DNA of 32,000 bases from Halomicronema hongdechloris C2206 (lineage in GTDB: Bacteria > Cyanobacteriota > Cyanobacteriia > Phormidesmidales > Phormidesmidaceae), in the NCBI RefSeq assembly GCF_002075285.3, contig NZ_CP021983.2, positions 5,160,001-5,192,000 of the forward strand, written 5' to 3'. The notes below the pieces were generated by a model, which was given only the letters and a program-made list of their open reading frames with translations, made no database searches and had not been told where the DNA came from. A program made the translations under genes and the position numbers. Positions 3,473 through 32,000 of this stretch are shown one piece after another; position 1 is the stretch's first letter, and the number at the start of each line of letters is the position of its first letter.

Positions 3473-5074
3473 ATGCTGGGATGGCAAGGGGCAACCATAG
3501 GGCTACGGCGACGGATAGAGGCTATGGGACCTGGGGGCCGCATACGCTGGAGGCCGCTGCTAGGCTTGGTCGTGGTGCTGGTCTGGCTAGGGCTACCAAC
3601 GACGGCTGTGGCCCGGGAGAGCACTGACTCCACCAGTACGGTGCAACCGTATTTGCAGCGGGTGGCCGAGGAAATCAGCGAGTTTACCCTCGACAATGGC
3701 ATGAAGGTCATTGTCTTAGAGCGTCATCAGGCACCGGTGGTCTCTTTTATGCTCTATGCCAATGTGGGGGCTGCCAATGAAGCGGCAGGCAAAACCGGCC
3801 TAGCCCACTACCTAGAGCACCTGGCCTTCAAGGGCACTACCCAGATTGGCACCCGTAACTATCGGGCTGAAAAGCGAGTCCTAGAGGACATGGATCAAGT
3901 CTTTGCGCAGCTGCTGGCGGCTGAGGATCGAGGCGATGACGCCACGGCTAAGCAGCGGCGGCAGCAGTTAGAGACTCTGAAAGCCAAGGCCGCTGAGTAT
4001 GTAGAGCAAAACCAGTACGGGCAAATTGTTGAGCAGGCCGGTGGGGTAGGGTTGAATGCCACTACAGGGGCCGATGCCACCCGTTATTTCTACAGCCTGC
4101 CCTCGAATAAACTAGAGCTGTGGATGTCTCTGGAGTCGGAGCGCTTCCTGGAGCCGGTTTTCCGGGAGTTTTACCAGGAGAAAGAGGTCATTTTAGAGGA
4201 GCGCCGCACGCGGGTAGATAATTCCCCCATCGGCAAGATGGTGGAAGAGTTTCTAGAGGCCTCCTTCGTGGAGAATCCTTACCGGCGGCCAATTATTGGC
4301 TACGCCGAGGATCTGTACCGGATGACTCGTGAGGATGTGCAGCAGTTCTTTAAAACCTACTATGGCCCTCGTAATCTGATTGCGACGGTGGTGGGGGATG
4401 TGGATCCGGCCCGGGTGCAGGAGTTGGCCGCGGTATATTTTGGCCGCTATCGGAGTCGGGCGACACCGCCTCCGGTGGTGTTTGATGAACCGGCCCAGAC
4501 TCAACCGCGAGACTTTACCCTGGAGTTGCCGTCGGAACCCTGGTATCTGGAGGGGTATCATCGACCGGCCATCACCCATCCCGATCATGTGATCTATGGC
4601 ATGATCGACAGTCTATTGGTGGACGGCCGCACCTCCCGGCTCTATAAGACCCTGGTGGAGGAAACTCAGGTGGCCCTGGATACAAGTAGCCTCAATGGGT
4701 TTCCCGGCGATAAGTATGCCAATATCTTTCTGCTGTATGCCCTGACGGCTCCGGGCCACACCCTAGATGAGGTGGCAGAGCAATTGCGGCGAGAACTGCA
4801 ACGGCTGCAGCAAGAGCCTGTGGCCGACGCGGATCTAGACCGAGTCAAGACCCAGGCGCGAGCGAGGCTACTGCGCCGCCTCGACTCCAATGCTGGCATG
4901 GCGGCGCTGTTGGCGGAATATGAGGCGAAAACCGGCAGCTGGCGTAATGTGTTTAAGGAATTGGCGGCCATTGAGGCGGTGACGGCGGCAGACGTGCAAC
5001 GGGTGGCCCGGGCGACGTTTCGTCCTGACAATCGAACCGTGGGTAGGTTGATAACGAGCCGGGACGAGTCCTGA
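3473..5074 (+). CDS. M16 (pitrilysin/insulinase) family zinc peptidase, catalytically competent subunit
   Basis: Carries the HxxEH zinc motif (GLAHYLEHLAFKGT) and the downstream NATTGADATRYFY block. A signal-like segment is present (LLGLVVVLVWLGLPTTAVA). The start is ambiguous: TTG 3452, ATG 3473 or ATG 3524. Confidence 0.9.
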   Translation: MLGWQGATIGLRRRIEAMGPGGRIRWRPLLGLVVVLVWLGLPTTAVARESTDSTSTVQPYLQRVAEEISEFTLDNGMKVIVLERHQAPVVSFMLYANVGAANEAAGKTGLAHYLEHLAFKGTTQIGTRNYRAEKRVLEDMDQVFAQLLAAEDRGDDATAKQRRQQLETLKAKAAEYVEQNQYGQIVEQAGGVGLNATTGADATRYFYSLPSNKLELWMSLESERFLEPVFREFYQEKEVILEERRTRVDNSPIGKMVEEFLEASFVENPYRRPIIGYAEDLYRMTREDVQQFFKTYYGPRNLIATVVGDVDPARVQELAAVYFGRYRSRATPPPVVFDEPAQTQPRDFTLELPSEPWYLEGYHRPAITHPDHVIYGMIDSLLVDGRTSRLYKTLVEETQVALDTSSLNGFPGDKYANIFLLYALTAPGHTLDEVAEQLRRELQRLQQEPVADADLDRVKTQARARLLRRLDSNAGMAALLAEYEAKTGSWRNVFKELAAIEAVTAADVQRVARATFRPDNRTVGRLITSRDES

Positions 5075-5120
5075 CTGCAACGGCATTGGGTAGTGATTTA
5101 GAAAGGCTAGCGAGAATTCT

Positions 5121-6608
5121 ATGAACCGGCGTCTGGGTATTGGGCACAAGTGGCTACGGACTCTCCTGTTGGGGCTAGCAACTCTGGTGGTGTTGCTGGG
5201 GGTGAATTGGTCGGCCCCTGCGATCGCAACCCCAGCCCACCATTACACGGAGCTAGACTTTCCGCCCCTGGGCCAGGTGCAAATTCCAGACTATGAACGC
5301 TACGAATTAGCCAATGGTCTGGTGGTGTATTTAATGGAAGACCACGAGCTGCCCCTGGTCAGTGGCACGGCCAGCTTCCGCACTGGGTCTCGCCTGGAGC
5401 CTGCCGATAAGGTGGGCTTGGCGGCTCTGATGGGAGATGCCATGCGCCTTGGTGGCACCGAGACCTATAGCCCCGATCAACTCAATCGCCGCTTAGAGCA
5501 ACGGGCGGCTGCGGTGGAAACTGGCGTGGACGACACCTCTGGCAGCGCCAGTTTCAATGCCCTCAGTGATGATTTAGCCGATGTCTTTGCCCTCTTCGCC
5601 GATGTGATTCAGCATCCGGCCTTTGCCCCCGATCAAGTCGAGTTGCTGCGGAAGCAGTATCGGGGCAGTATTGCTCGCCGCAATGATGACCCCGGCGATG
5701 TGGCTTCCCGGGAGTTTCGCAAGTTGGTCTATGGGGCGGAGAATCCCTATGCTCGCACCATGGAGTATGCCACCCTGGCGGCCATTAGCCGCGACGATAT
5801 CATCGACTTTTATCGTGCCTCCGTCCGTCCCGAGCGGACCATCCTGGGAATCGTGGGCGATTTTGACTCGGCCCAGATGAAGGCGCTGATTGCCGAACAG
5901 TTTGCGGACTGGCGTCCCCAAGGGACGGCCCTGGATACGACGGTGCCGATGCCGAGCCAACAGGCTCAAACCGGTGTGTTCTCGGTAGATCAGCCCCAAC
6001 TGAGCCAAAGCTATGTGCAACTGGGCCATCTGGGGGGGCAACTCAGCAATCCTGACCATCCGGCCCTGTCGGTCTTAAATGAAGTCCTGAATGGCTTCGG
6101 CGGTCGCCTGTTCAACCAAGTGCGATCGCGTCAGGGCTTGGCCTATGTGGTCTATGCCTTCTGGGCACCCCGCTATGACTATCCCGGCATGATTATCGGT
6201 GGTGGCCAAACCCGCTCCGATGCCACGGTGTCCTTCATCGAGTCAGTACAAGCCGAACTGCAGCGGGTGCGATCGCAACCGATCACCCCAGCAGAACTGC
6301 AGCGAGCCAAAGATGGAGTATTAAATAGCTTCGTCTTCAACTTCCAGAGCCCAGACCAGACCCTGTCGCGCCTGATTCGCTACGAGTACTACGACTATCC
6401 CTCCGACTTCATCTTCCAATTTCAACGGCAGGTCGAAGCCGTCACGGCCGAAGCTATCCTAGCGGGAGCCCAGGCCAATCTACAGCCGGATCAGCTAGTG
6501 ACCCTGGTGGTCGGCAATCAAGCTAACATTCAACCCACCCTAGACAGCCTGGATCCGGACACTGACGTCACCCAAATCGACATCACCATTCCGTCTCCGC
6601 CGGCCTAG
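5121..6608 (+). CDS. M16-family peptidase-like protein lacking the HxxEH motif (probable non-catalytic partner)
   Basis: 495-aa ORF 46 nt downstream of the first M16 gene. It has an N-terminal signal-like helix (LLLGLATLVVLLGV) and M16-like architecture, but the position equivalent to HxxEH reads GLAALMGDAMRLGGT. Confidence 0.88.
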   Translation: MNRRLGIGHKWLRTLLLGLATLVVLLGVNWSAPAIATPAHHYTELDFPPLGQVQIPDYERYELANGLVVYLMEDHELPLVSGTASFRTGSRLEPADKVGLAALMGDAMRLGGTETYSPDQLNRRLEQRAAAVETGVDDTSGSASFNALSDDLADVFALFADVIQHPAFAPDQVELLRKQYRGSIARRNDDPGDVASREFRKLVYGAENPYARTMEYATLAAISRDDIIDFYRASVRPERTILGIVGDFDSAQMKALIAEQFADWRPQGTALDTTVPMPSQQAQTGVFSVDQPQLSQSYVQLGHLGGQLSNPDHPALSVLNEVLNGFGGRLFNQVRSRQGLAYVVYAFWAPRYDYPGMIIGGGQTRSDATVSFIESVQAELQRVRSQPITPAELQRAKDGVLNSFVFNFQSPDQTLSRLIRYEYYDYPSDFIFQFQRQVEAVTAEAILAGAQANLQPDQLVTLVVGNQANIQPTLDSLDPDTDVTQIDITIPSPPA

Positions 6609-6647
6609 GCTCGCCCTGCAGGCACAACCTTGCGGAACCTGGCCCTG

Positions 6648-6678
6648 AGCCCTTGTAGAACAACTACAAGGGCTTTAT
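6648..6678 (+). terminator. Putative intrinsic terminator of the M16 pair
   Basis: Perfect hairpin AGCCCTTGTAG-aacaa-CTACAAGGGCT followed by TTAT, 40 nt after the stop at 6608. The T-tract is short. Confidence 0.5.
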
Positions 6679-6927
6679 CGGCTCTGCTGCCGTGCCCCTG
6701 CCAATCCTGTAGCCTCAATCGCGAAGGCTGGTACAGCCACCGCCACCAAACATTGTGCAGTGGCGAGCTGGTCACCTTCCTAGACTAGGCAGTTGATCGA
6801 TTAACCATGTCCTAAGCTGACTGGTCAACGCTATTACCTGATGCAGAGCAGCTGCTGAGGGAAAAGGGTCCAGTTGGTAGCGCTAGTTACCGTCGACGGC
6901 TTGCTAACCCCGTAGCCTACACTAGGC

Positions 6928-6949
6928 AAACAAAAATTAACTTTTGTTT
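6928..6949. repeat. 8-bp perfect inverted repeat AAACAAAA-attaac-TTTTGTTT upstream of ORF 6976
   Basis: The arms are 6928-6935 and 6942-6949, about 27 nt upstream of the ATG. A possible operator or promoter element, but function unknown. Confidence 0.3.
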
Positions 6950-6975
6950 ACACCTGTGGAATTCGAACCTGTTTC

Positions 6976-7569
6976 ATGCAAGATGTTGCCGTTGAATTAT
7001 TTCAGCTTTTGGTGCAAGCAGGCGCCGTGCCCGGAGACGATTTTTCCTGTGACGGCGCCAATCGGGTTTACCGTCTAAACGAGCGCTGCCTACATCTGCT
7101 ACAGCACGCCTACCCAGAGGTAGACTGGTTTGACCTCGTGGATATCCAGCAACAGTCTTCAGATGCCATGATTTCTGCCCTGCATGAGCGTTTAGGGGTT
7201 CCCTTCGTCGATAACCTGATCGCGCGCATGGAGCAACGGCTGCAGCGACTACCTGAGGCCCAGGCAGCTTGGTATGTGCGGCACATTCTGTCAGGGGTAG
7301 AATATTGTACTGGACTAGCCCTCTTCCCGGTGTTGTCAGAACGCCTACCCTTGATGGCTAAAGCCAAATTGGAATGGTTGTTGCGGCAAGACGATGGGCA
7401 GCCAGGAGATGAATGGATCGCAGACTTAGTCCTGGCAGCGGGCGGGTGTCCTCGAGATTTACGCCATACAGGTCACGGCCTGGGGCTGACAGAGCAAGGA
7501 TTACAACGGCTGCAATTAGTCTGGGCTGGGGACTGTGAGGTGACGCTATTGCCCCCTAAACAGCCCTAA
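6976..7569 (+). CDS. Hypothetical cytoplasmic protein
   Basis: 197-aa ORF with balanced composition, no TM segment and no signal peptide. I recognise no family. The antisense ORF 7110..7367 is Arg/Ser-rich. Confidence 0.6.
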   Translation: MQDVAVELFQLLVQAGAVPGDDFSCDGANRVYRLNERCLHLLQHAYPEVDWFDLVDIQQQSSDAMISALHERLGVPFVDNLIARMEQRLQRLPEAQAAWYVRHILSGVEYCTGLALFPVLSERLPLMAKAKLEWLLRQDDGQPGDEWIADLVLAAGGCPRDLRHTGHGLGLTEQGLQRLQLVWAGDCEVTLLPPKQP

Positions 7570-7810
7570 GATGGCTGGCTAGATAGGCCTCTGTCCTCCG
7601 TGATCTCGTGAGTTCGAGTCATACTTTTTTCAATCTTTATGATCGAGGCGGGGATCATCTCGAGGAAGATCCGTTAGCCTCAGAGTAGATGCCGTTGTTA
7701 GCCACAGCGATCGGCTTCCAGGTGTGGGAGGAAAGCTAGAGAGTCTTCCCGGATGTGGTCACTGAGCGCTCACCCTCGCCCTGCACTAACTGGTTACACC
7801 CTGTAGTCCG

Positions 7811-7860
7811 CTGATATCTGTTCTGATATCTGTATAGTCAGTATCTTTATCAGTATCTGT
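7811..7860. repeat. Four iterated ~12-nt direct repeats (CTGATATCTGT / CAGTATCT core)
   Basis: Reads ctgatatctgt-t-ctgatatctgt-atagt-cagtatct-ttat-cagtatctgt, about 130 nt upstream of the 7991 start. Confidence 0.4.
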
Positions 7861-7990
7861 AGATGTCTCGATAGAGCATGAGGGGCGACTCTCCCCTGCA
7901 GACTTTTGGGCTTCCCTGTTAGGCTGCTGATGAGCTCCCTGATTAGCCTGATTAGATCTACATTCGCTGGATTGACTATTTCTATCCTTT

Positions 7991-8752
7991 ATGAATATCC
8001 AAGGCTTAGGATTAGCGAACCAAGATACATCCTTCGATCCTCCCATGAGCTTTACCACGGTTCGACCCGATCACCTGTCGATTATTGCCAGTGACTTCGA
8101 TGCTCGCCCTATGAGTTTTCTGAAGGATGGCGAGCGGATGGGATACGAACCGGCGGTGACTAAAGCCGTCTGTGAGCTGCTGGGGCTGAAACCGATGTGG
8201 TTTAACCTGCCGATGCAAGACTTTTATACGGCCTTGAGCACGGGGCAGTACGATGTCATCTGGTTCAAGCAGGCGATTACCCAAGACCGGCGAGCCTGGG
8301 CCGACTTTACCCGCCCCTATGGCCGCTTTGATGAGGCAATCCTGGTACGGGATGAGAGTCCCATCCACGAGCCTAAAGACTTAGCCGGTAAGCGTTTGGG
8401 AGGCTTAGACGGTGGCACCAGCTTGGACCTGGCTCAATATTTGCCGGAGCTGGAACTGATGCCGTTTCCCGGTAACAATCGGGTCTTGCCGGATATGCTG
8501 CAGGCGCTCAAGGATAAAAAAATTGACGCCATTATCGATGATGCTCTGGTGTTGATGGCCGCAGAAGCCAACGATCCTACCTTTCGGGTGGCGTTTCCGA
8601 TGCCCACTCGCCTGCCCTTCGGAGTGGGCGTTTTACCTGGTAACCGAGAATTACTAGAAGCCCTGAATCGAGCCATCACCAGTTTGATCGCTGACGGTAG
8701 CCTGAATAAGCTCTGGGGCCGCTGGATTCCCTACGTGCCATATCCGTTCTAG
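7991..8752 (+). CDS. Family-3 (amino-acid type) solute-binding-domain protein without signal peptide
   Basis: SBP_bac_3-like blocks are present (GYEPAVTKAVCELLGLKPMWFNLPMQDFYTALSTGQYDVIW; DFTRPY; KRLGGLDGGTS; KKIDAIIDDALVL). The N-terminus (MNIQGLGLANQDTSFDPP...) is hydrophilic. An alternative ATG lies at 8045. Confidence 0.8.
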   Translation: MNIQGLGLANQDTSFDPPMSFTTVRPDHLSIIASDFDARPMSFLKDGERMGYEPAVTKAVCELLGLKPMWFNLPMQDFYTALSTGQYDVIWFKQAITQDRRAWADFTRPYGRFDEAILVRDESPIHEPKDLAGKRLGGLDGGTSLDLAQYLPELELMPFPGNNRVLPDMLQALKDKKIDAIIDDALVLMAAEANDPTFRVAFPMPTRLPFGVGVLPGNRELLEALNRAITSLIADGSLNKLWGRWIPYVPYPF

Positions 8753-23264: not shown

Positions 23265-23464
23265 GGGTAGGGGCGCGGTTGCCGCGCCCAATGCAGAAAA
23301 CTCCTCCGGAGCCGCTTCGCGAACACTACAAGCGGTTTGCCCTGGTCGTCAGAGTCCGAGGGGATCTCGTTCCCCTCGGGTGAGTACCCCGAGCGACACG
23401 ATTAAGCCTGGTCTTATCGAGGTCTATCGCCGCTGACCAACAAGCCCTGCTGCAGGGGTCAGGG
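23265..23464 (+). repeat. Modular hairpin-rich dispersed repeat, copy C (modules 1-X-3-2-4'')
   Basis: Module 1 is identical to copy A apart from 1-2 nt (hairpin 23271-23289). The extra X segment has the CTCCGGAG palindrome and a CCGCTT...AAGCGG hairpin. Module 3 carries the flipped hairpin loop (23356-23379). Module 2 is CGATTAAGCCTGGTCTTATCGAGGTCTATCGCCGCTGA. The copy runs into the stop codon of the DUF928 gene. Confidence 0.85.
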
Positions 23465-24190
23465 TAGAAGGGTCAGGGGCGTAGTTGCTGCGCCTAGGAA
23501 AGGCTGCTCGGCGATCACCGCCAGGCCCACAGACTCTAACAACTCTTGCCAGCGGGCTTGTAGCTCTGGATCCTCCGGATCAGCCATTTGCAGCTCGGCT
23601 AGGGTACCCACAGCATCGAACCAAACGCCGTGGCTAGCGTAGAGGCCAACCTGTTCAGAGCGATTGGCGGTAGCCAAGGCAGCTGCCAGATCATCTTCGG
23701 GGGTTATCCGATGTACCCAGCCATCGACCCGTAGGTCCCCGCGGCGGTTGTTGGGGTTGCAGATGATTGCCACGGACCATTGATAATCTTGACCGATTTC
23801 GAGGGCAGGCAGGCCACTGTGCTGCGGCAATGAGACACTGGCAATGCCGGCCTCATTAGCCACACTTAGGGTGCTGCTATAAATCAGTTGCCGGTCCCCT
23901 TCTGGATTAGCTTGATAGAGGCTGAACTCAACAAAGCGGGCCTGGCTGCGAGGCATGTACCAGAAAAAGGTGGGATAGGCCTCGGTGGTTAAGCCTAGGT
24001 TGGTGTCCGGCAGTAGGGCCACTAAACGACTAGGGCGACCCAATACACAGCCCCGAGTCGCGGCACCTTCTCGCCGACCGGGCAACCCTCGATTGGGTGG
24101 CTGAAAGGGTTCGGCCCAGGCCAGAGGTGCAACCGCCATGCTGCTAAGCCACAAATAGCAGACAAGTCGAGCAATGGAGAGGTGAGTCAT
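23459..24190 (-). CDS. DUF928-domain secreted protein
   Basis: Signal peptide (LVCYLWLSSMAVAPLAWA) followed by the DUF928-like core PPNRGLPGRREGAATRGC...LVALLPDTNLGLTTEAYPTFFWYMP. Confidence 0.8.
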   Translation of the reverse strand: MTHLSIARLVCYLWLSSMAVAPLAWAEPFQPPNRGLPGRREGAATRGCVLGRPSRLVALLPDTNLGLTTEAYPTFFWYMPRSQARFVEFSLYQANPEGDRQLIYSSTLSVANEAGIASVSLPQHSGLPALEIGQDYQWSVAIICNPNNRRGDLRVDGWVHRITPEDDLAAALATANRSEQVGLYASHGVWFDAVGTLAELQMADPEDPELQARWQELLESVGLAVIAEQPFLGAATTPLTLLP

Positions 24191-24993: not shown

Positions 24994-25074
24994 TAGGTGA
25001 TGGTGGTAAGGGAGCCTACTAATCGGGCGTGACACCCCTGTTACAGTGGGAGACAACGCATTCAAGATAGTAGT

Positions 25075-25797
25075 GTGAGCCAAGTTCTCATGGTGGTGCA
25101 TCAAGCCACCTCTGATCCAGGCCTGGTAGGGCAGCAATTGCGGCAGCGGGGCTATGGCTTGGATATGTGCTGTCCGGCCGAGGGAGAGCCCTTACCGCAG
25201 GATCTAGAGGCCTATGAGGCCGTGGTGGTCTTCGGCGGCCCCATGAGTGCCAATGACGATGACACCCTGCCATTTATTCGGCAGGAATTGCACTGGATTG
25301 AGCGGATACTGACAACAGACACTCCATTTTTGGGTATCTGCCTGGGGGCGCAACTGCTGGCCAGAACCCTGGGAGCCCAGGTTTATTCCCATCCGCAGGG
25401 CCTGAGAGAAATTGGCTATTTCCCATTGCAGCCGACGGTGGCTGGCCAGGCCTATTTTGCTGACCCGATGGCGGTATATCACTGGCATCAAGAGGGGTTT
25501 GAGTTACCTCGCCGAGCGATGTTGCTGGCTCAGGGCAATTGGTTTCCCCATCAGGCCTTTCGCTACGGCCAGGCCTATGGATTGCAATTTCACCCAGAAA
25601 TCACCACCGAGTTGATCCACACCTGGACGACTAAGGGAGCCGACCAACTGACTTTGCCCGGTGCCCAGCCCCGTGATCGCCAGCTAGCTGGCCACCGCCA
25701 ACATGGTCCAGGTGTGGCCCATTGGCTGCAGGGATTTCTGGAGCGTTGGCTGATCTCAGATAAGGCGAGCCGTGAACAAGATCGTCTCATCGCCTGA
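25075..25797 (+). CDS. Class I glutamine amidotransferase-like protein
   Basis: Nucleophile elbow FLGICLGAQLLA and the His-Glu pair in LQFHPE. 240 aa. Last GC-rich gene before the compositional break. Confidence 0.85.
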   Translation: MSQVLMVVHQATSDPGLVGQQLRQRGYGLDMCCPAEGEPLPQDLEAYEAVVVFGGPMSANDDDTLPFIRQELHWIERILTTDTPFLGICLGAQLLARTLGAQVYSHPQGLREIGYFPLQPTVAGQAYFADPMAVYHWHQEGFELPRRAMLLAQGNWFPHQAFRYGQAYGLQFHPEITTELIHTWTTKGADQLTLPGAQPRDRQLAGHRQHGPGVAHWLQGFLERWLISDKASREQDRLIA

Positions 25798-26018
25798 GAT
25801 TACGGCAAATCCCAATTGGGTAAAGCACAGTGCCAAGATCTCTCCAACCCCCATTACCAAGATACCGCTAGCGTTTTCAGCAAGCCTTATATGATATGAA
25901 GTGCTATTGCCGCTTACTTATCTCCGAGATGTAGACTACAACACTTACCATTTGTGGCGAAGTTCGGTTAAAGTCTGAGGTATAACCAAGCTACAGTCGA
26001 AGCACATAGGTCAATTTT

Positions 26019-26402
26019 ATGAAGGCAAGGGCGCTGATTGTCTACGGTGCAATTACAATCTCGCTTATATCAGGGGTGGCTCTGGGCAAGCGGGCACTAG
26101 GCGATCCTGTTTGCTATCTTGAATTTCAAGACGGAGAGGTGATGGATTTGGAAGAACTCTGTGGCACTAGAACACCTAGCACACCGGCTAACCCTCCGAT
26201 TGAACTAGGTGATTCAGAGACACGGGCTGCTATGGCAGCTACCGGTATCACGATAGAAGATATTCAGGAATTGCGGCAGATGGCGGCTCAAGATCCTAAT
26301 GCGGCAGCTGAACGTTTGAGGAATATTCTTTGTTCTCAAATGCCGGATGGTGAATGCACTATTTCACTGGCAGAGATCCATATTGACACTGGCTTAGACT
26401 AA
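26019..26402 (+). CDS. Small secreted four-Cys protein (orphan)
   Basis: 127-aa ORF with a signal peptide (MKARALIVYGAITISLISGVALG) and two Cys pairs (VCYLEFQDGEVMDLEELCG; LCSQMPDGEC). It stops 3 nt before the next ATG. Confidence 0.6.
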   Translation: MKARALIVYGAITISLISGVALGKRALGDPVCYLEFQDGEVMDLEELCGTRTPSTPANPPIELGDSETRAAMAATGITIEDIQELRQMAAQDPNAAAERLRNILCSQMPDGECTISLAEIHIDTGLD

Positions 26403-26405
26403 GTT

Positions 26406-27173
26406 ATGACACCTGCTGAACAGCGTCTTGGAGTGGAATCAACAGATCTAAATCAACAAGTTGTTTTAGTCCGAAAGAAAGGTTCGATAACAATTTCCTT
26501 CCTTTTGCAAATTTTATCTAATAAATACTCAATCAATATTTTTTCTCCTGACTCAATAGCATCAAATGACTATTGCTACTTGGTCATTTACAGCTTAAAG
26601 GGTCACGATTGGATATTAGTTCAAGAGTTTGGCCCCTGTGCTAGTGATGATATTGGAGATGAGAGTCTGGCAAGAGAGTTTTCTTGTAGAATAACTACTC
26701 CCGTATTTGTTTTCGAGCAAAGTGACACAGGCCTTTTCTTAAAATATTCTATCTGGGAAAGCTGCTTTGTTAAGGAAAAATTCGAGTTCCGCGAAGAAGG
26801 ATTTTTTGGCAATGAAGATGTAAATTTGAGTAACTTTAACCAGCAACCAAATATTAGTAGATTGTTGCTCATGAGTGATGATTTAGTAGAGGAATATGGT
26901 GGCAATATTCCATTTGAACATAATTGTATCGTTTGCTCTTCTTTTAGAAGAGTATCTGCAAACGAAGTTGGTAATCCATACAAATTTGTTTCTAATACCT
27001 TTGAGAAAGCAGGTGCGTATATTCCTGGATTAGAGTGGAGCCTGAGCAGGAGTAAAAGTAAAAGACAAAAACTAATCGATTCCTTATTTTCTATTGGTTC
27101 TTCAATTTATCTTAGTGATTTCCGAGAAATAGTCTTTACTAAAGTTAATCAGAGCCTAACAGGAGAGTCTTAG
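26406..27173 (+). CDS. Orphan cytoplasmic protein
   Basis: 255-aa ORF with no TM segment or signal peptide, very AT-rich. Its stop TAG shares a base with the GTG start of the next ORF. Confidence 0.65.
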   Translation: MTPAEQRLGVESTDLNQQVVLVRKKGSITISFLLQILSNKYSINIFSPDSIASNDYCYLVIYSLKGHDWILVQEFGPCASDDIGDESLAREFSCRITTPVFVFEQSDTGLFLKYSIWESCFVKEKFEFREEGFFGNEDVNLSNFNQQPNISRLLLMSDDLVEEYGGNIPFEHNCIVCSSFRRVSANEVGNPYKFVSNTFEKAGAYIPGLEWSLSRSKSKRQKLIDSLFSIGSSIYLSDFREIVFTKVNQSLTGES

Positions 27174-27919
27174 TGATACTTACAAAAATACTGCTTTCAA
27201 GGTTATTAGTTACTTTGTCTACTCTAGTACTTGTTGAGGCATTTCTTAATATAGAAGTAAAAGCTCAAACTATTCCACATAGTACTATTATTGATCTTTC
27301 GTGTAGCGATGATACTCCAGTTACTAGAACACAAATTGAAAGTATTCGAGCTCGACCAGGAATTGTCTACAAAGATGCAACGACACTAGAGCTTGCTTTT
27401 GAGGCTTTTGCACTAGAAAGCGCTTATAAGCAAAAGTCGGACGATATTTTTTATTCTCCGCGAGCCGATAAAAATGTAATGCCTGATGCGGTCACAACGT
27501 TCATCTATATTAACTTGAATCCGTTTAGATTCAGAGTTTACTATCCTGGTGTGTTCATTGATGCCAAATCAGGAAGGAGCAGAATTATGCTCAGTTCGGG
27601 AAACAACCAAACACTAGGATTTATTGATCACTTAGCAAATGTCGCCCAAATCGGTAGAGAGGGTTTTGTACTACCACAACTCAGGTATCTCACAGTTGGC
27701 GATACTGTTATCGGTAACAGTACAATTGCTGAGGCTCAAAAAGAAGGAGTTATGCTGATGCAGCGCATCGCCTGTAATAATCCTGGTGGGGCCATCGGCG
27801 TTGATGAATTCTATATGGGTAGGCTAGTTACGTTAGAATCGGGTCAGGTTTTTAGCGCTGGAAGACCGGGGACAATGTTCAGAAACATTAATCCGCTACC
27901 TCCACCGAATCCTTATTAA
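27173..27919 (+). CDS. Orphan secreted protein with a PD...DxK-like motif
   Basis: 248-aa ORF with a GTG start and a signal-like N-terminus (LLSRLLVTLSTLVLVEAF). E73/E77/E82, P104-D105 and D130-A131-K132 are spaced as in PD-(D/E)xK folds, but this is a weak motif-level observation only. Confidence 0.6.
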   Translation: MILTKILLSRLLVTLSTLVLVEAFLNIEVKAQTIPHSTIIDLSCSDDTPVTRTQIESIRARPGIVYKDATTLELAFEAFALESAYKQKSDDIFYSPRADKNVMPDAVTTFIYINLNPFRFRVYYPGVFIDAKSGRSRIMLSSGNNQTLGFIDHLANVAQIGREGFVLPQLRYLTVGDTVIGNSTIAEAQKEGVMLMQRIACNNPGGAIGVDEFYMGRLVTLESGQVFSAGRPGTMFRNINPLPPPNPY

Positions 27920-28074
27920 GCCTACATGCCCATCTATGTCTTGATTCCTTGATTTATATTTCCGAGCGTTTTTTTAAGCAATGTTGTTAGGCGTCATAGC
28001 ACCAAGCTAGTTTAGTTTGCTTTTGACGTCCAGTGAAGAAACTAATCAGCGCAACAGACTGCAAAGATGTTAGG

Positions 28075-28190
28075 ATTAAAGCTCCATTAGTCTTCCATAG
28101 GTATGCATTACTTTTTTGCCTGACGGTCATTGCAATCAATCTTTGCGCTGTTACCCGAGGTGGTATTTGAACCCAACCCAAGATATTATG
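28075..28190. repeat. Decayed duplicate of the beta-helix/Wzy divergent 5' junction
   Basis: My hand alignment to 30060-30175 is ungapped, with about 98 of 116 identities. In the Wzy frame a Trp codon (tgg) has become a stop (tga) at 28168-28170. Confidence 0.85.
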
Positions 28191-28449
28191 GAGTGGGCAC
28201 TGGTCTGGTAATGTAGGATGAACGCCGTTAAGCTTCATTGGGTAAGGGTTTTAGAAGTTTAGCGACCGATTGCCTCAAACCTTGGCTGGGTGAACGTTTG
28301 GGCAGGCCATCCCACTTTTAGAAACCAGTGCCAACCTTGATACCAGCAATCTCGATTTCTTCGTTCATGACTCCAACTTAGCGAAGCTTGCTACCTCCAT
28401 TCCCTAAGTTTCCTTTAATTTCCTGGGACGGTTATTGATCGGCTTACAC

Positions 28450-28482
28450 AAAAATCTGAACACTCTGATCTTCATTTCAGAT
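28450..28482 (-). terminator. Possible intrinsic terminator of the beta-helix gene
   Basis: On the minus strand: ATCTGAA, a 15-nt loop, TTCAGAT, then TTTTGTGT. The stem overlaps the stop codon and the loop is large, so support is weak. Confidence 0.3.
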
Positions 28483-30115
28483 TTATTATTTCAAAATTTA
28501 TATTATTTTCTAATTTTACATCAGATGAAAAATTTATGGCGTTGTCGCCTTTACTTACATTATTGCTGACAATGTTATGATTTCCTCCTAGACTGGCTTT
28601 AATCAAAATACTGCCGTTTAATATGTTTTGATTGATTTGTACACCATGCATTTGTCCAGGCTTCTGATTTGTGTCTGCATTCACGTATATTAATTCTGTG
28701 TCCGTGATGTTTGACAAAAGTTGATTACCAAGAATCATAACGTTCATAATATCAGGAATTTTGTATAGCCCAATGTAACTGTTGCCAACGTTTTGCTTAA
28801 TACTGACCCCTTTTACTTTTGTGCCTCCACAGCACTCTTGAATAAGAATCCCCTCACCATCAATGCTTTGATTTGAGGTATTACTAAGGAAATGTCGATA
28901 AACTTGGTAAGTATTTCCCTCTATAATGACATTCCAACCAGACCAATCAATCGCTCGGTTCTCATAAGTAATATTCGGTGGTATTCGATCTGAATCATTC
29001 AGATAAGGTGGTCCTAGTCCCCATCTATCTGTGTACCAGCGTTTATCGGCCTTATCAAGGACAATATTATCCTTAATAACTAAACCATCACCAGAAGCAT
29101 GAATACCAACACTCATGGTGTGATAAACCCAATTATTTCGAATTATAATCCTCTTCCTAAATAAACCCTTCTCTTTTTCAGGAGTTGCTAATGGCTCAAA
29201 GAGAATAGAGCCATTCTTAAAGCGGTTGACGCTAATGCCGTAATGATTAGTGTAATTAAAGGGAACCTTCCAGCCTTCTGCCAAAACTTCTACAGAGCCA
29301 TTCTTACGCTGTATCTGATAGTTATCTTGTTCAAAGCTGTCAGTAATATTATCGTTCAGACGATTATTTGCAATCAGGACATTACTCTTTGCTGTAACTT
29401 TGATATTGGCTGACAGCAGGTCAGAGAACCGTAGCCATGGCGACTGAAACTCAAGATTAGGGACATATGGGTTGGGTGTAGCTACATTGTTTTGGCGAAT
29501 GCCATAGATAACGATATTGCTATTCTGAGACTCGTCAATATTGTTTCCAAAAGTTACCGCAGCACGATTAATATCGAGATTAATCAACCCTATATTTCTA
29601 TCAATGTCTGGGTTCGTAGTTCTGATAGTTTTAAAGGCTGTCTTATTAGGTGTCCCCGTACCAGATTGAACAGGCTGATATTGAGGGAAAATTAATTTGG
29701 TCCGAGGTGAATAGCTATCATTTTTAGCATCTTGTAGTATTGGAGACGCTCCCCGTATTACAATACCTTCCTTCAAAACTAAGTCTTCTTCGAAGATGTA
29801 GGTACCTGCAGGTAAGAAAATAACTCCACCTCCTCGTGTGTAGGCAATATCCCGTGCCAAGTTAAAACGTTCTTGATCAGAACTTCCTGAAAAATCTTCA
29901 ATATTATATACACATGACCATGGCAAGGAGTTGGTCCAGCTATATTCAGGGTATTGGTGTGCAAGTGGATTGTTGGTTGGTCCACCAAGATAACTACCAC
30001 AGGCTGTGTCCTGGTATCCTATGCGACAGTTAATCAGCACAACAAACACGAAGACGAGTACTAAAGCACCTCTAATCTTCCATGTATATGCGTTGTTCTT
30101 TTGCCTCACGGTCAT
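28472..30115 (-). CDS. Secreted right-handed parallel beta-helix (PbH1 repeat, pectate-lyase-superfamily-like) protein
   Basis: Signal peptide MTVRQKNNAYTWKIRGALVLVFVFVVLINC. N-terminal cap block ARDIAYTRGGGVIFLPAGTYIFEEDLVLKEGIVIRG. Repeated coil motifs are present (NIVIYGIRQNNV; NVLIANNRLNDN; IIIRNNWVYH; LVIKDNIVLD; VIIEGNTY; VSIKQNVG; VMILGNQLLSN; VQINQNILNG; NIVSNNVSKG). The start is chosen at ATG 30115; the ORF is open up to 30490. Confidence 0.85.
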   Translation of the reverse strand: MTVRQKNNAYTWKIRGALVLVFVFVVLINCRIGYQDTACGSYLGGPTNNPLAHQYPEYSWTNSLPWSCVYNIEDFSGSSDQERFNLARDIAYTRGGGVIFLPAGTYIFEEDLVLKEGIVIRGASPILQDAKNDSYSPRTKLIFPQYQPVQSGTGTPNKTAFKTIRTTNPDIDRNIGLINLDINRAAVTFGNNIDESQNSNIVIYGIRQNNVATPNPYVPNLEFQSPWLRFSDLLSANIKVTAKSNVLIANNRLNDNITDSFEQDNYQIQRKNGSVEVLAEGWKVPFNYTNHYGISVNRFKNGSILFEPLATPEKEKGLFRKRIIIRNNWVYHTMSVGIHASGDGLVIKDNIVLDKADKRWYTDRWGLGPPYLNDSDRIPPNITYENRAIDWSGWNVIIEGNTYQVYRHFLSNTSNQSIDGEGILIQECCGGTKVKGVSIKQNVGNSYIGLYKIPDIMNVMILGNQLLSNITDTELIYVNADTNQKPGQMHGVQINQNILNGSILIKASLGGNHNIVSNNVSKGDNAINFSSDVKLENNINFEIINLK

Positions 30116-31406
30116 TGCAATCAACCCTTTCGCTGTTACCCGAGGTAGTATTTGGACCCAACCCAAGATATTATGTGTATTCGCTATTGTCATCCTGCAC
30201 CTTCTAATCCTCTTTAAGGAACGGCAGCCAATAAGGCGTCCTAACCAGTGGAAGTTACAAGTATTTGGTTGGCTGGCCTTACTGGCTTCAGGTATTATCT
30301 CAACCCTACTGAGTCCATTTCCTAGCCGTTCTTTCTTTGGCCATAGTATTACCGCTGATGGATGGCTGTATTGGTTATTAATAGCAGGCTTTGTACTCAC
30401 AAACAGCCTGGTTTTGAAGCAATATCCTCGTCTATTTCTCTGGCAGCTTAGAGGAATTCTAGTTGGCGCGACGCTGGTAGCATTAAGCATGTATCCCCAG
30501 TTTTTGAACTGGAAATTAGACTATACAGCTGATTCAGGACAACTTTGGCCTGGCACTGAACACGTATTGGCTACTGGCATCTATCAGGATCACCAGCCAG
30601 TTGGGTTATACTCGCATCGGGGTTACGCAAGCTTTGCCTTAGCCATTGCATCAGTTCTATCTCTGGTAGCCCTGAAAAAGCAATGGCTTTCTGCTCGAGT
30701 AGCACTTCCTTTGACTGCACTCCATGCAATAACGCTTAGTCTGGCTCGGGTCAGAGGTGCCATGCTTGCGATGCTTTTAGCCTGGCTCTGGCTCGCTTGG
30801 ACCACACCCCGGCGTCGGTCTACGCAGCAACTGATCATCGCTTTGAGCTTAATAGGCCTATTAAGTTTTGGTTGGACTACGATGGAGCGACGAGTTATCA
30901 ATGCTGATTTCTACGCTTCTACGCCATTCAGAGTAGCTCTCAAGCATTTTACCTCTGATAGAATATTTCTATGGCAGAAAGCTTGGCAAGGTATCCTGAA
31001 ACGCCCTTGGTTCGGTTGGGGCTTCAGCGGCTATTCCATTGCAGATACATACTATCTGTGTCCTGAGGGAACAGAACCAGTTATTTTAGAGGACTACTTC
31101 ACGCATTGTCAGCTAGAGACTGGTGAAACCGTTCAGGTTTCTGCCAAAGCAATTCATGCCCACAATGTTTTCTTAGACAAGTACATAGCACTGGGCGTAG
31201 TTGGAGCAAGCATCTACCTTGTTCTCATGAGCTACTATGCTTTAGCCGTACTTAAGGCCAAACCAGAGATATTAGCCTTGGTGATCACATATGCTAGCTA
31301 TATGCTTACCTGGTATGATTGTGGACAACTCAGTCATTTAGGTTGGTGGGCACTCAGCATTCAAACTAGTCTTCGGCACACTTCGGTTATTAATAACGAC
31401 CACTGA
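30006..31406 (+). CDS. O-antigen ligase / Wzy-like polytopic membrane protein
   Basis: 466-aa ORF with at least 10 hydrophobic helices, a periplasmic-loop-like segment and the HAHNVFLD block typical of Wzy_C domains. The start is GTG 30006 or ATG 30021. Confidence 0.82.
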   Translation: MSWYPMRQLISTTNTKTSTKAPLIFHVYALFFCLTVIAINPFAVTRGSIWTQPKILCVFAIVILHLLILFKERQPIRRPNQWKLQVFGWLALLASGIISTLLSPFPSRSFFGHSITADGWLYWLLIAGFVLTNSLVLKQYPRLFLWQLRGILVGATLVALSMYPQFLNWKLDYTADSGQLWPGTEHVLATGIYQDHQPVGLYSHRGYASFALAIASVLSLVALKKQWLSARVALPLTALHAITLSLARVRGAMLAMLLAWLWLAWTTPRRRSTQQLIIALSLIGLLSFGWTTMERRVINADFYASTPFRVALKHFTSDRIFLWQKAWQGILKRPWFGWGFSGYSIADTYYLCPEGTEPVILEDYFTHCQLETGETVQVSAKAIHAHNVFLDKYIALGVVGASIYLVLMSYYALAVLKAKPEILALVITYASYMLTWYDCGQLSHLGWWALSIQTSLRHTSVINNDH

Positions 31407-31599
31407 TATGCTCTCTAGGTGTCCCACTATCGCATGGGCACATGGATCTAGTTTCAAGGCTAACCATAAATCGCTTATCAGGTTTGATTCTGGCGTTAGT
31501 TAACTACTGAAGTAAGTGTATACTAGTTACTATGGTAGAAAAGTTGCGAATAAGTCTTACACTTATCCACCCCTAAGTCGCTAGATAGATAACTGTTTG

Positions 31600-32000
31600 A
31601 TGAGTCAGCACTTGTCAGATTCTGCTGCAACGGTTCAAGGATTGCTAAACCTTATCTTCTCAGAAGAAGAAGATATTGAAAATTTGCAGAATCAGTGCAT
31701 CTTAAATCAAGAAAAGTACGATCAGAAGGCATCCCTAGAGTTAGAATTTCATAGGAGTAAAGATGAAGTAGAAATCCCGGAAGACCAAAAAGAAATAGTC
31801 TGGTACCAAATTCGAAAAGAACTATCTGAGCTTCTGGATGAAATAAAACTACTGGAATATTCCATTACTTCTAAGCAGGAAATTATTGCCATTCTATGTG
31901 GCAGCATCCTCGAGATCGCGAAATATGGAATGATGGTTAATTATTCTAGATTAAGCGAATGTCCTGATGTAAGATTTATCGGAAAAGAGTCAATTAAAAA
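31600..32000 (+). CDS. Orphan ORF truncated by the window end
   Basis: Not in the supplied track. ATG 31600 (in-frame stop at 31582) is open for 133 codons to the window edge: MSQHLSDSAATVQGLLNLIFSEEEDIENLQNQ...ILCGSILEIAKYGMMVNYSRLSE. AT-rich like the rest of the island. Confidence 0.5.
   Translation, partial: MSQHLSDSAATVQGLLNLIFSEEEDIENLQNQCILNQEKYDQKASLELEFHRSKDEVEIPEDQKEIVWYQIRKELSELLDEIKLLEYSITSKQEIIAILCGSILEIAKYGMMVNYSRLSECPDVRFIGKESIK

Follow-up and report, generated by a model that had tools for sequence, protein, structure and literature searches.

A putative Sec-dependent, polymorphic-toxin-type gene cassette in the cyanobacterium Halomicronema hongdechloris C2206

We analysed a 32,000-nucleotide stretch of DNA from Halomicronema hongdechloris C2206 (assembly GCF_002075285.3, contig NZ_CP021983.2, positions 5,160,001 to 5,192,000 of the forward strand), which is called the window below and whose first nucleotide is position 1. 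Three adjacent open reading frames (ORFs) on the + strand, ORF1, ORF2 and ORF3, were confirmed at the coordinates given in Table 1; the GenBank locus tags of this region are XM38_049340 and XM38_049350. With moderate confidence, we read these genes as a co-directional, Sec-dependent cassette of the polymorphic toxin type, in which ORF3 would be the toxin, ORF2 a cytoplasmic immunity protein and ORF1 an exported accessory protein. An earlier note on this DNA had suggested a toxin/immunity-type module, and that suggestion fits the homology of ORF3 to the tips of RHS proteins, the co-occurrence of the three gene families in other genomes and the presence/absence polymorphism of the block. The marks of polymorphic toxin loci that were found are a toxin-type domain placed after the DPxG motif of RHS proteins, an adjoining small gene, cassette polymorphism and orphan immunity-type genes.

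An indication of what ORF3 may do comes from its relatives at the C-termini of RHS proteins. P0045 (687 amino acids, aa) and P0051 carry the RHS core TIGR03696 with scores of 60.7 and 58.4 bits, respectively, against a curated cut-off of 32.5, and in both proteins the ORF3-like domain begins 7-11 residues past the DPxG motif that closes the core. The same DPxG junction motif was present in P0044 and P0034. Circularity was avoided by building two separate profiles in which the RHS-type members were kept apart, and the profile made from RHS-type members only matched residues 45-222 of ORF3 at E 2.7e-23. Judged from these alignments, the predicted mature ORF3 corresponds in extent and in sequence family to an RHS C-terminal toxin domain. 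At two of the RHS-type loci, L007 and L008, a small unrelated gene comes directly after the C-terminal domain and overlaps it by 1 nt, and L008 is a tandem array of two cassettes, each made of a C-terminal toxin and an immunity-like gene.

The conserved residues of the family point to a nuclease. The alignment of 34 ORF3-family sequences follows the pattern FE(77)xFAL … vxPD(104-105) … SxFx[DE](130)xK(132) … Q(146)xxGxxD … T174xxD … Q197, and ORF3 keeps every conserved position except S126, which is Gly in ORF3. The E, D, (D/E)xK and Q residues agree with the signature listed for restriction-endonuclease-fold toxins, in which Tox-REase-1, -6 and -7 are given as 'E, D, ExK, Q' and are delivered by the type II secretion system (T2SS; signal peptide only) or by RHS proteins (Zhang et al. 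2012, PMC3482391). The signature carries weight because it is conserved family-wide, and not from ORF3 by itself. We infer from this conservation that ORF3 works like a restriction-endonuclease-fold (PD-(D/E)xK-like) nuclease toxin.

The products of ORF1 and ORF3 are predicted to be exported. The signal-peptide calls were heuristic, being based on hydrophobicity and charge, and the ORF3 cleavage site was placed by the -3/-1 rule. The N-terminus of ORF3 contains K5 and R10, reaches a 15-residue Kyte-Doolittle (KD15) maximum of 2.29 at residues 11-25 and offers a cleavage site between VKA and Q; matching hydrophobic N-terminal segments were seen in its homologues. ORF1 begins with MKAR, followed by a KD15 maximum of 2.09 at residues 6-20 and a site between ALG and K, so that its signal-like region spans about residues 1-23. 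No hydrophobic segment was found in ORF2 (KD15 maximum 1.23). These heuristic profiles agree with the earlier statement that the first and third products bear signal peptides and the middle one does not. A second line of evidence came from Cys44 and Cys201 of ORF3. Both residues are present in members with a hydrophobic N-terminus, both are absent from RHS-fused members, and no sequence that covers the two columns carries one Cys without the other. Because this pair tracks the signal-peptide members and is missing from the RHS-fused ones, which are delivered through the cytoplasm, it supports the export of ORF3 and suggests a C44-C201 disulfide that would be formed outside the cytoplasm.

ORF1 belongs to a family of eight sequences in which C32, C48, C105, C113, G39 and L44 are invariant and all members have hydrophobic N-termini. 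Its product looks soluble, consisting of about 100 residues plus the signal peptide, and no lipobox Cys follows the hydrophobic segment. A Pro/Ser/Thr-rich linker follows the second Cys in this family, for example GTRTPSTPANPP (window 26160-26210, residues about 49-62). The linker and the nearby Wzy_C gene, of the O-antigen-ligase/O-oligosaccharyltransferase type, invite the thought of a glycosylation link, which is pure speculation; the Wzy neighbour is not conserved in other lineages.

Table 1. Features of the ORF1-ORF2-ORF3 region, in window coordinates. Functional terms are predictions.
Feature	Position	Strand	Description
Left flank, conserved upstream segment	25900-25996	+	89.7% identical to L012 9882-9790; possibly promoter/5' region
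Three-gene block	25997-27901	+	Indel relative to L012/L014, where 25996 and 27902 are only about 8 nt apart (GGGGCATC)
ORF1	26019-26402	+	127 aa, ATG start; small, acidic, pI 4.3; putative accessory component
ORF2	26406-27173	+	255 aa, ATG start; predicted cytoplasmic; candidate immunity/inhibitor protein, from adjacency
Shine-Dalgarno-like AGGAG	27161-27165	+	7 nt 5' of the ORF3 GTG, within the end of ORF2
ORF3	27173-27919	+	248 aa, GTG start; predicted exported toxin-domain protein
ORF3 signal-peptide-like region	27173-27265	+	Residues 1-31, MILTKILLSRLLVTLSTLVLVEAFLNIEVKA, followed by Q
Cys44 of ORF3	27302-27304	+	Putative disulfide partner of Cys201
Glu77 of ORF3 (FExFAL helix)	27401-27403	+	E or Q in nearly all members; first element of putative active site
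Pro104-Asp105 of ORF3, 'PD' motif	27482-27487	+	Nearly invariant in 34 sequences
Asp130-Ala-Lys132 of ORF3, '(D/E)xK' motif	27560-27568	+	D/E at 130 and K at 132 nearly invariant
Gln146 of ORF3	27608-27610	+	Sole invariant residue of the ORF3 family
Cys201 of ORF3	27773-27775	+	Putative disulfide partner of Cys44
ORF3 last codons (PPNPY, stop)	27902-27919	+	Identical to L012 9781-9764 (CCACCGAATCCTTATTAA); scar

The three families became visible in an exhaustive search. The three proteins were concatenated and compared with 1.84 billion cluster representatives using phmmer (E <= 1e-3), which gave 52 matches that separated cleanly into an ORF1 family (four matches, P0005, P0010, P0029 and P0049; best P0005, 48% identity, E 1.7e-27), an ORF2 family (13 matches; best P0004, 45% identity, E 1.4e-60) and an ORF3 family (33 matches; best P0008, 33% identity, E 4.7e-15). 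The named members are all cyanobacterial, from genera that include Scytonema, Myxacorys, Microcoleus, Nodosilinea and Leptolyngbya, and all of them are labelled 'hypothetical protein'. Among them, the stand-alone exported proteins of the ORF3 type come from Scytonema, Myxacorys and Microcoleus, and the members of the ORF2 family from Leptolyngbya and Nodosilinea. In contrast, each of the three proteins matched itself alone in a word-indexed search of 5.8 billion proteins. The description of this operon as an orphan was thus overturned by the phmmer scan, and orphan status derived from word-indexed searches can be an artefact, as sequences that were singletons there had 50 relatives (down to E 1e-60, 45% identity) by HMMER. 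For AT-rich genes that evolve fast, such calls are not to be relied on.

The statement that none of the products could be assigned to a family stands for Pfam, NCBIfam, PADLOC, PHROGs and PDB, which gave no match to ORF1, ORF2 or ORF3 (PADLOC at E <= 1); it does not stand for the distant families described above. Scans extended to all family members (Pfam at E up to 10, NCBIfam at E up to 1) returned only accessory RHS, FG-GAP, vWA and ankyrin domains, and PDB sequence and profile searches found nothing. No relatives were present in the plasmid and phage annotated-record collections, and scans of viral contigs, both scans of metagenome contigs and an ORF3-only scan of genome contigs gave no match.

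Hidden Markov models of the three families were scanned against the six-frame ORFs of every locus retrieved. Among the loci reached through an ORF3 relative, the order ORF3-ORF1-ORF2 was found in a near-identical pair, L003/L005 (L005 is a metagenome-assembled genome of Coleofasciculaceae), and in L012-L014, from a close relative of the window genome. Chroococcidiopsis (L006) has ORF3-ORF1 with ORF2 on the opposite strand 1 kb off, and Microcystaceae (L004) has ORF2-ORF3 and no ORF1. An ORF2-family gene therefore lies within about 2 kb of a signal-peptide-type ORF3-family gene in all four of the other cyanobacterial lineages examined, and an ORF1-family gene is present in three of the four, with varying gene order. 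The ORF2 relatives beside the toxin gene scored E 1e-46 to 1e-57, and the ORF1 relatives E 1e-6 to 1e-11. The earlier note had named a lack of co-occurrence among homologues as a refutation of its proposal, and the families do co-occur in other cyanobacteria. A side observation concerns the ORF3-family protein at the Microcystaceae locus, P0014 (L004 5926-7401). The S.F.DAK strand and the N-terminal Cys region are missing from it, and a vWA domain has been acquired at its C-terminus; judged by sequence, this is probably a toxin that has been inactivated or put to another use.

Loci reached through the other two families showed how the genes are kept. Two short metagenome contigs found through ORF1 relatives (L002 and L011) carry ORF1 with an ORF2 homologue 3-4 nt downstream, where the contig ends. 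In Nodosilinea (L001), found through an ORF2 relative, an intact ORF2 homologue is preceded 4 nt upstream by a truncated ORF1 homologue whose signal-peptide region has been lost to a stop codon; there is no ORF3, and ParE follows. A metagenome contig reached through an ankyrin-fused ORF2 relative (L010) has the ORF2-family domain alone, and on another (L015), reached through an ORF2 relative, the ORF2 homologue adjoins an IS630 transposase. With solitary homologues at L001, which has no toxin gene, L010 and L015, ORF2 appears to persist alone as orphan immunity genes do, and its relatives P0046 and P0048 are fused to ankyrin repeats.

On this comparison, ORF1 and ORF2 stay together as a closely spaced, conserved pair in the window, L001, L002 and L011, and only the position of ORF3 varies. 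This pattern might be explained by two independent modules lying side by side, with ORF1 a small secreted, bacteriocin-like and disulfide-rich peptide, ORF2 its immunity protein and ORF3 an unrelated toxin with its own immunity gene lost or placed elsewhere. Such an explanation accounts for ORF1-ORF2 being the tightest and most constant unit (3-4 nt gaps) and for the varying position of ORF3 relative to that pair, but we regard it as very unlikely. At every locus seeded with ORF3 (L004-L006 and L012), a member of the ORF2 family lies no more than about 2 kb away, although this family has only 13 clusters among the 1.84 billion representatives; no other immunity candidate adjoins ORF3 in the window, and the window cassette was gained or lost as a single block.

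The evidence for gain or loss as a block came from the close relative represented by L012. DNA of L012/L014 is 90-94% identical to the window in four segments, 30031-31384 (the Wzy_C gene), 31597-32000 (the next gene), 27902-28190 and 25900-25996. Because the equivalents of 25996 and 27902 lie almost next to each other in L012, the whole ORF1-ORF2-ORF3 block is missing there, and the junction reads …GGTATAACCAATCTACAG-GGGGCATC-CCACCGAATCCTTATTAAGCC…. Similarity to the relative ends at 25996, and synteny with L012 ceases left of 25900. The relative has a trio of its own across the Wzy gene, with 26%, 20% and 31% identity to ORF1, ORF2 and ORF3, respectively. Strongly diverged toxin/immunity alleles within near-identical flanks, as these sequences seem to be, are typical of polymorphic toxin loci. 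The acquired-island setting proposed in the earlier note agrees with a cassette that is present in one genome and absent from a close relative with such similar flanks.

Several side observations concern the borders of this block. The C-terminal tail tL..PP.NP[YF] is common to ORF3-family members and was seen in P0011, P0027, P0030 and P0024; some tails run on into a Cys-rich extension ending VGKW.G.SWK. The tail is the exact scar kept in L012, and it may mark a border at which cassettes are exchanged by recombination. In L012, the divergent ORF3-ORF1-ORF2-type module (5001-8280) comes after Wzy and a gene for 206 aa. The last position of the window falls within the homologue of the latter gene, so a second module may be present in H. 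hongdechloris, on the opposite strand, just past 32000. A second insertion relative to L012, at 28191-30030, is that of a pectate-lyase-like gene (ORF 28472-30490, - strand) with a weak PF12708 match. On its two sides lie the copies of a direct repeat (28043-28190 and 30031-30177; about 148 bp, 84% identity) that corresponds to the 5' end of the Wzy_C gene. At 28033 the native start of Wzy (MKKLISATDCKD…) has been left stranded (28033-28170, + strand) and carries a Trp-to-stop TGA (28168-28170), and the intact Wzy body at 30006-31406 has had its N-terminus replaced.

ORF3 could also be a secreted 'public' nuclease used for scavenging, biofilm remodelling or protection against incoming DNA, with ORF2 as an intracellular safety inhibitor that guards the producer before export and without any role as an interbacterial weapon. 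We consider this unlikely, although ORF3 has no module for delivery or receptor binding beside its signal peptide and catalytic-type domain, stand-alone signal-peptide members of about 250 aa occur in many cyanobacteria, and ORF2 is predicted to be cytoplasmic. In contrast to this explanation, the ORF3 domain also serves as an RHS C-terminal toxin beside immunity-like genes, close relatives differ in whether they have the cassette, which is strongly diverged between them, and an ORF2-type gene is kept alone in L001, where the toxin gene is missing. RHS use, cassette variability and a lone ORF2 are typical of antagonistic toxin/immunity loci and thus argue against a housekeeping nuclease. Barnase/barstar and the Anabaena NucA/NuiA pair are known cases in which a signal-peptide nuclease is encoded with a cytoplasmic inhibitor. 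Unlike the present cassette, they are two-component systems of unrelated folds and families, with no RHS link, and they are not variable cassettes; to our knowledge, a conserved exported third protein is part of neither.

The arrangement of the genes was read directly from the sequence. ORF1 ends with TAA at 26400-26402, followed by gtt and the ATG at 26406, which leaves a 3-nt gap. At the ORF2/ORF3 junction, TAGTG, the TAG at 27171-27173 and the GTG at 27173-27175 share G27173, giving a 1-nt overlap. The packing on one strand is thus as the earlier note described it, with a gap and an overlap of the size expected for a translationally coupled same-strand operon, and the overlap hinges on GTG 27173 as the start. 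GenBank starts ORF3 at TTG 27215 (234 aa), and with that start the overlap disappears. GTG 27173 is probably the better-supported start, because AGGAG lies 7 nt upstream and the length of the N-terminus fits the homologues: the E77 column falls at residue 76 in ORF3, P0008, P0011 and P0033, which is a match in signal-peptide length. The GTG start also gives ORF3 a complete signal peptide.

No terminator-like sites were found between the three genes, and no + strand promoter-like sites were found between them apart from one weak match inside ORF2, and the three genes are probably co-transcribed. A sigma-70 scan of 25900-25996 found no + strand site, no terminator-like hairpin was found 3' of ORF3, and an Rfam scan of 25000-32000 gave no match.

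No stop-free run obtained by shuffling the region 500 times (mean 91, maximum 171) is as long as ORF2 (255 codons) or ORF3 (248 codons). The length of ORF1 (127 codons) is not by itself significant against these shuffles, and ORF1 was accepted as a real gene because it has conserved homologues with four invariant Cys. The order of codon-position GC content is GC1 > GC2 > GC3, as expected for coding sequence. These results make it highly improbable that the genes lack a current function and are leftovers of decay, or artefacts of annotation, in foreign DNA rich in AT. That explanation could appeal to the rearrangement scars of the surrounding island, namely the stranded Wzy 5' end and the 148-bp duplication; however, in addition to the ORF lengths and the codon-position order, ORF3 keeps all its catalytic-type residues and both Cys, and ORF1 keeps its four invariant Cys.

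GC content drops from about 0.55-0.60 in the native flank to 0.35-0.46 near position 26000 and stays low through the end of the window, with values of 0.487 for ORF1, 0.355 for ORF2 and 0.406 for ORF3. The native-GC neighbours are genes for a DUF928 protein (23459-24190, - strand; PF06051, E 3e-59) and a class-I glutamine amidotransferase (25075-25797, + strand; NF005072-like), and the fall begins directly 3' of the amidotransferase gene. The earlier note was correct that ORF1 is the least AT-rich of the three genes, but a mosaic origin of the operon was not supported. The same offset between ORF1 and ORF2 recurs in the closest homologue pairs (0.417/0.364 in L001 and 0.425/0.386 in L002), in which the pair itself is conserved, and it is therefore not by itself a sign of a mosaic operon. 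We dropped the idea that ORF1 and ORF2 have different origins on the basis of GC content.

Under the polymorphic-toxin reading, ORF1, ORF2 and ORF3 would be transcribed together. ORF3 would use its signal peptide to cross the inner membrane by the general Sec pathway, with no dedicated injection machine, and the exported protein would be stabilised by the C44-C201 disulfide. It would act as a metal-dependent nuclease toxin, with E77, D105, D130, K132 and Q146 as the metal-binding/catalytic site. ORF2 would stay in the cytoplasm and would bind and neutralise the toxin before export, or after its re-entry or its entry from sister cells. ORF1, the conserved third partner of the signal-peptide subfamily, would be co-exported with two disulfides and may act on ORF3 in the periplasm or outside the cell, as a chaperone or a neutraliser, or may help in its release or targeting. 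It is possible, although doubtful at present, that the signal-peptide subfamily is a true three-component, cyanobacteria-specific system in which ORF1 is obligatory, either as a second, periplasmic immunity layer, so that neutralisation takes place in two compartments, or as a soluble release/targeting helper. If this were true, two-compartment neutralisation, or a soluble helper without a known secretion machine, would be a mechanism undescribed for polymorphic toxins.

Several observations weigh against the toxin/immunity reading. The PD…[DE]xK pattern appears in 6% of shuffles of ORF3 alone. No Tox-REase or PD-(D/E)xK model of Pfam (E <= 10) or NCBIfam and no PDB sequence matches any of the 34 family members, and ORF3 is therefore not filed in a named Tox-REase clade. 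Single-sequence AlphaFold2 models of ORF3 and ORF2 have a predicted local distance difference test (pLDDT) score of only 31 and 33, respectively. The order of elements in the ORF3 model (helix, strands, helix, strand) is compatible with an alpha-beta-beta-beta-alpha-beta core but unreliable at this confidence, and Foldseek with the same low-confidence model gave no match at E <= 0.001. In ORF3, no domain was recognised by which it could traverse the outer membrane or get into a target cell. The ORF2 and ORF3 families occur together in only four independent lineages, with ORF1 as well in three, and several of the contigs are short. In addition, the RHS-fused relatives pair with another immunity-like family, not with ORF2, and the proposed immunity role of ORF2 therefore rests on adjacency rather than on universality. 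Two immunity-type proteins also have N-termini compatible with action outside the cytoplasm: P0052, a 325-aa ORF2 relative from Leptolyngbya, has a signal-peptide-like N-terminus, and the immunity-like protein of L008 (2917-3651) has a lipoprotein-like one.

The last two proteins also fit an alternative in which ORF3 acts in the cell envelope and not on DNA, the exported ORF1 is a periplasmic immunity protein and ORF2 is a pre-export chaperone or regulator. Further in its favour, the ORF1 family accompanies toxins with intact catalytic residues (L003/5, L006, L012 and the window) and is missing at the degenerate L004. We nevertheless judge this alternative to be quite unlikely, as the conserved E/PD/(D/E)xK/Q pattern is one that marks nucleases, a signal sequence is absent from the L007 counterpart of the L008 protein, L001 retains ORF2 intact while its ORF1 is truncated, and ORF2 relatives are found beside the toxin gene far more consistently and strongly than ORF1 relatives.

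Other kinds of system were considered and rejected. An anti-phage defence system was set aside for lack of any PADLOC match, and a toxin-antitoxin addiction module because two of the three products are predicted to be exported. The earlier note had also offered surface modification, and this was given up because the link to the neighbouring Wzy gene is confined to the Halomicronema-type locus.

In nuclease colicin and S-pyocin operons, the toxin is of the nuclease type, its immunity protein is tightly co-expressed with it, and a third, small protein for lysis or release is exported. Colicins have no signal peptide and carry receptor-binding and translocation domains, and the lipoprotein that acts as their lysis protein has about 30-50 residues. 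The present cassette resembles these operons in placing a toxin-type gene, an immunity-type gene and a gene for a small exported third protein together; in contrast, ORF3 has a predicted signal peptide, ORF1 has no lipobox, and the gene order is different and varies between loci.

Among known systems, the nearest functional precedent may be MafA-MafB-MafI of Neisseria, by analogy only, as ORF1 is no homologue of MafA. As described (PMC7738311, PMC4287609), that system is likewise an island-borne three-gene module, made up of a polymorphic toxin exported by Sec, an accessory protein that is exported as well and an immunity protein of the cytoplasm, and MafA is stated to be required for MafB to cross the outer membrane (PMC7738311). 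Unlike MafA, a large, oligomer-forming outer-membrane lipoprotein, ORF1 has four Cys, looks soluble and lacks a lipobox. ORF3 lacks the N-terminal domain of the MafB type, and no Pfam or NCBIfam match links ORF1 or ORF3 to the Maf families.

The closest likeness in toxin type is to the Tox-REase-1, -6 and -7 polymorphic toxins, which share with the ORF3 family the E, D, (D/E)xK, Q pattern, the occurrence of both signal-peptide-only ('T2SS') and RHS C-terminal forms, and an adjacent small gene of the immunity type (PMC3482391). Immunity-type genes that stand alone, immunity-type proteins fused to ankyrin repeats and variability in the manner of cassettes are further features in common. The present families differ in that no Pfam Tox-REase or Imm model matches them and the ORF2 immunity-type family is unannotated; moreover, the signal-peptide subfamily has an exported four-Cys third protein, and its named members are all cyanobacterial.

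The claim of an undescribed system is accordingly right in one part, as no curated family describes these proteins, and wrong in another, as they belong to the known signal-peptide-only ('T2SS') class of polymorphic toxins (PMC3482391). What is known already is the class, a polymorphic toxin with its immunity protein, delivery by a signal peptide and a restriction-endonuclease-like toxin. What appears to be new is that none of the curated libraries searched annotates the putative toxin and immunity families, that the signal-peptide subfamily is so far cyanobacterial only, and that it has an exported four-Cys third component.

Interbacterial toxins of cyanobacteria are poorly explored, and the families described here were previously recorded only as 'hypothetical protein'. 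Stand-alone exported proteins of cyanobacteria are now linked to the toxin tips of RHS proteins at other loci, and a candidate immunity family has been assigned to them. The cassette also offers a conserved third partner whose role is directly testable, concrete predicted active-site residues and a close relative that naturally lacks the cassette.

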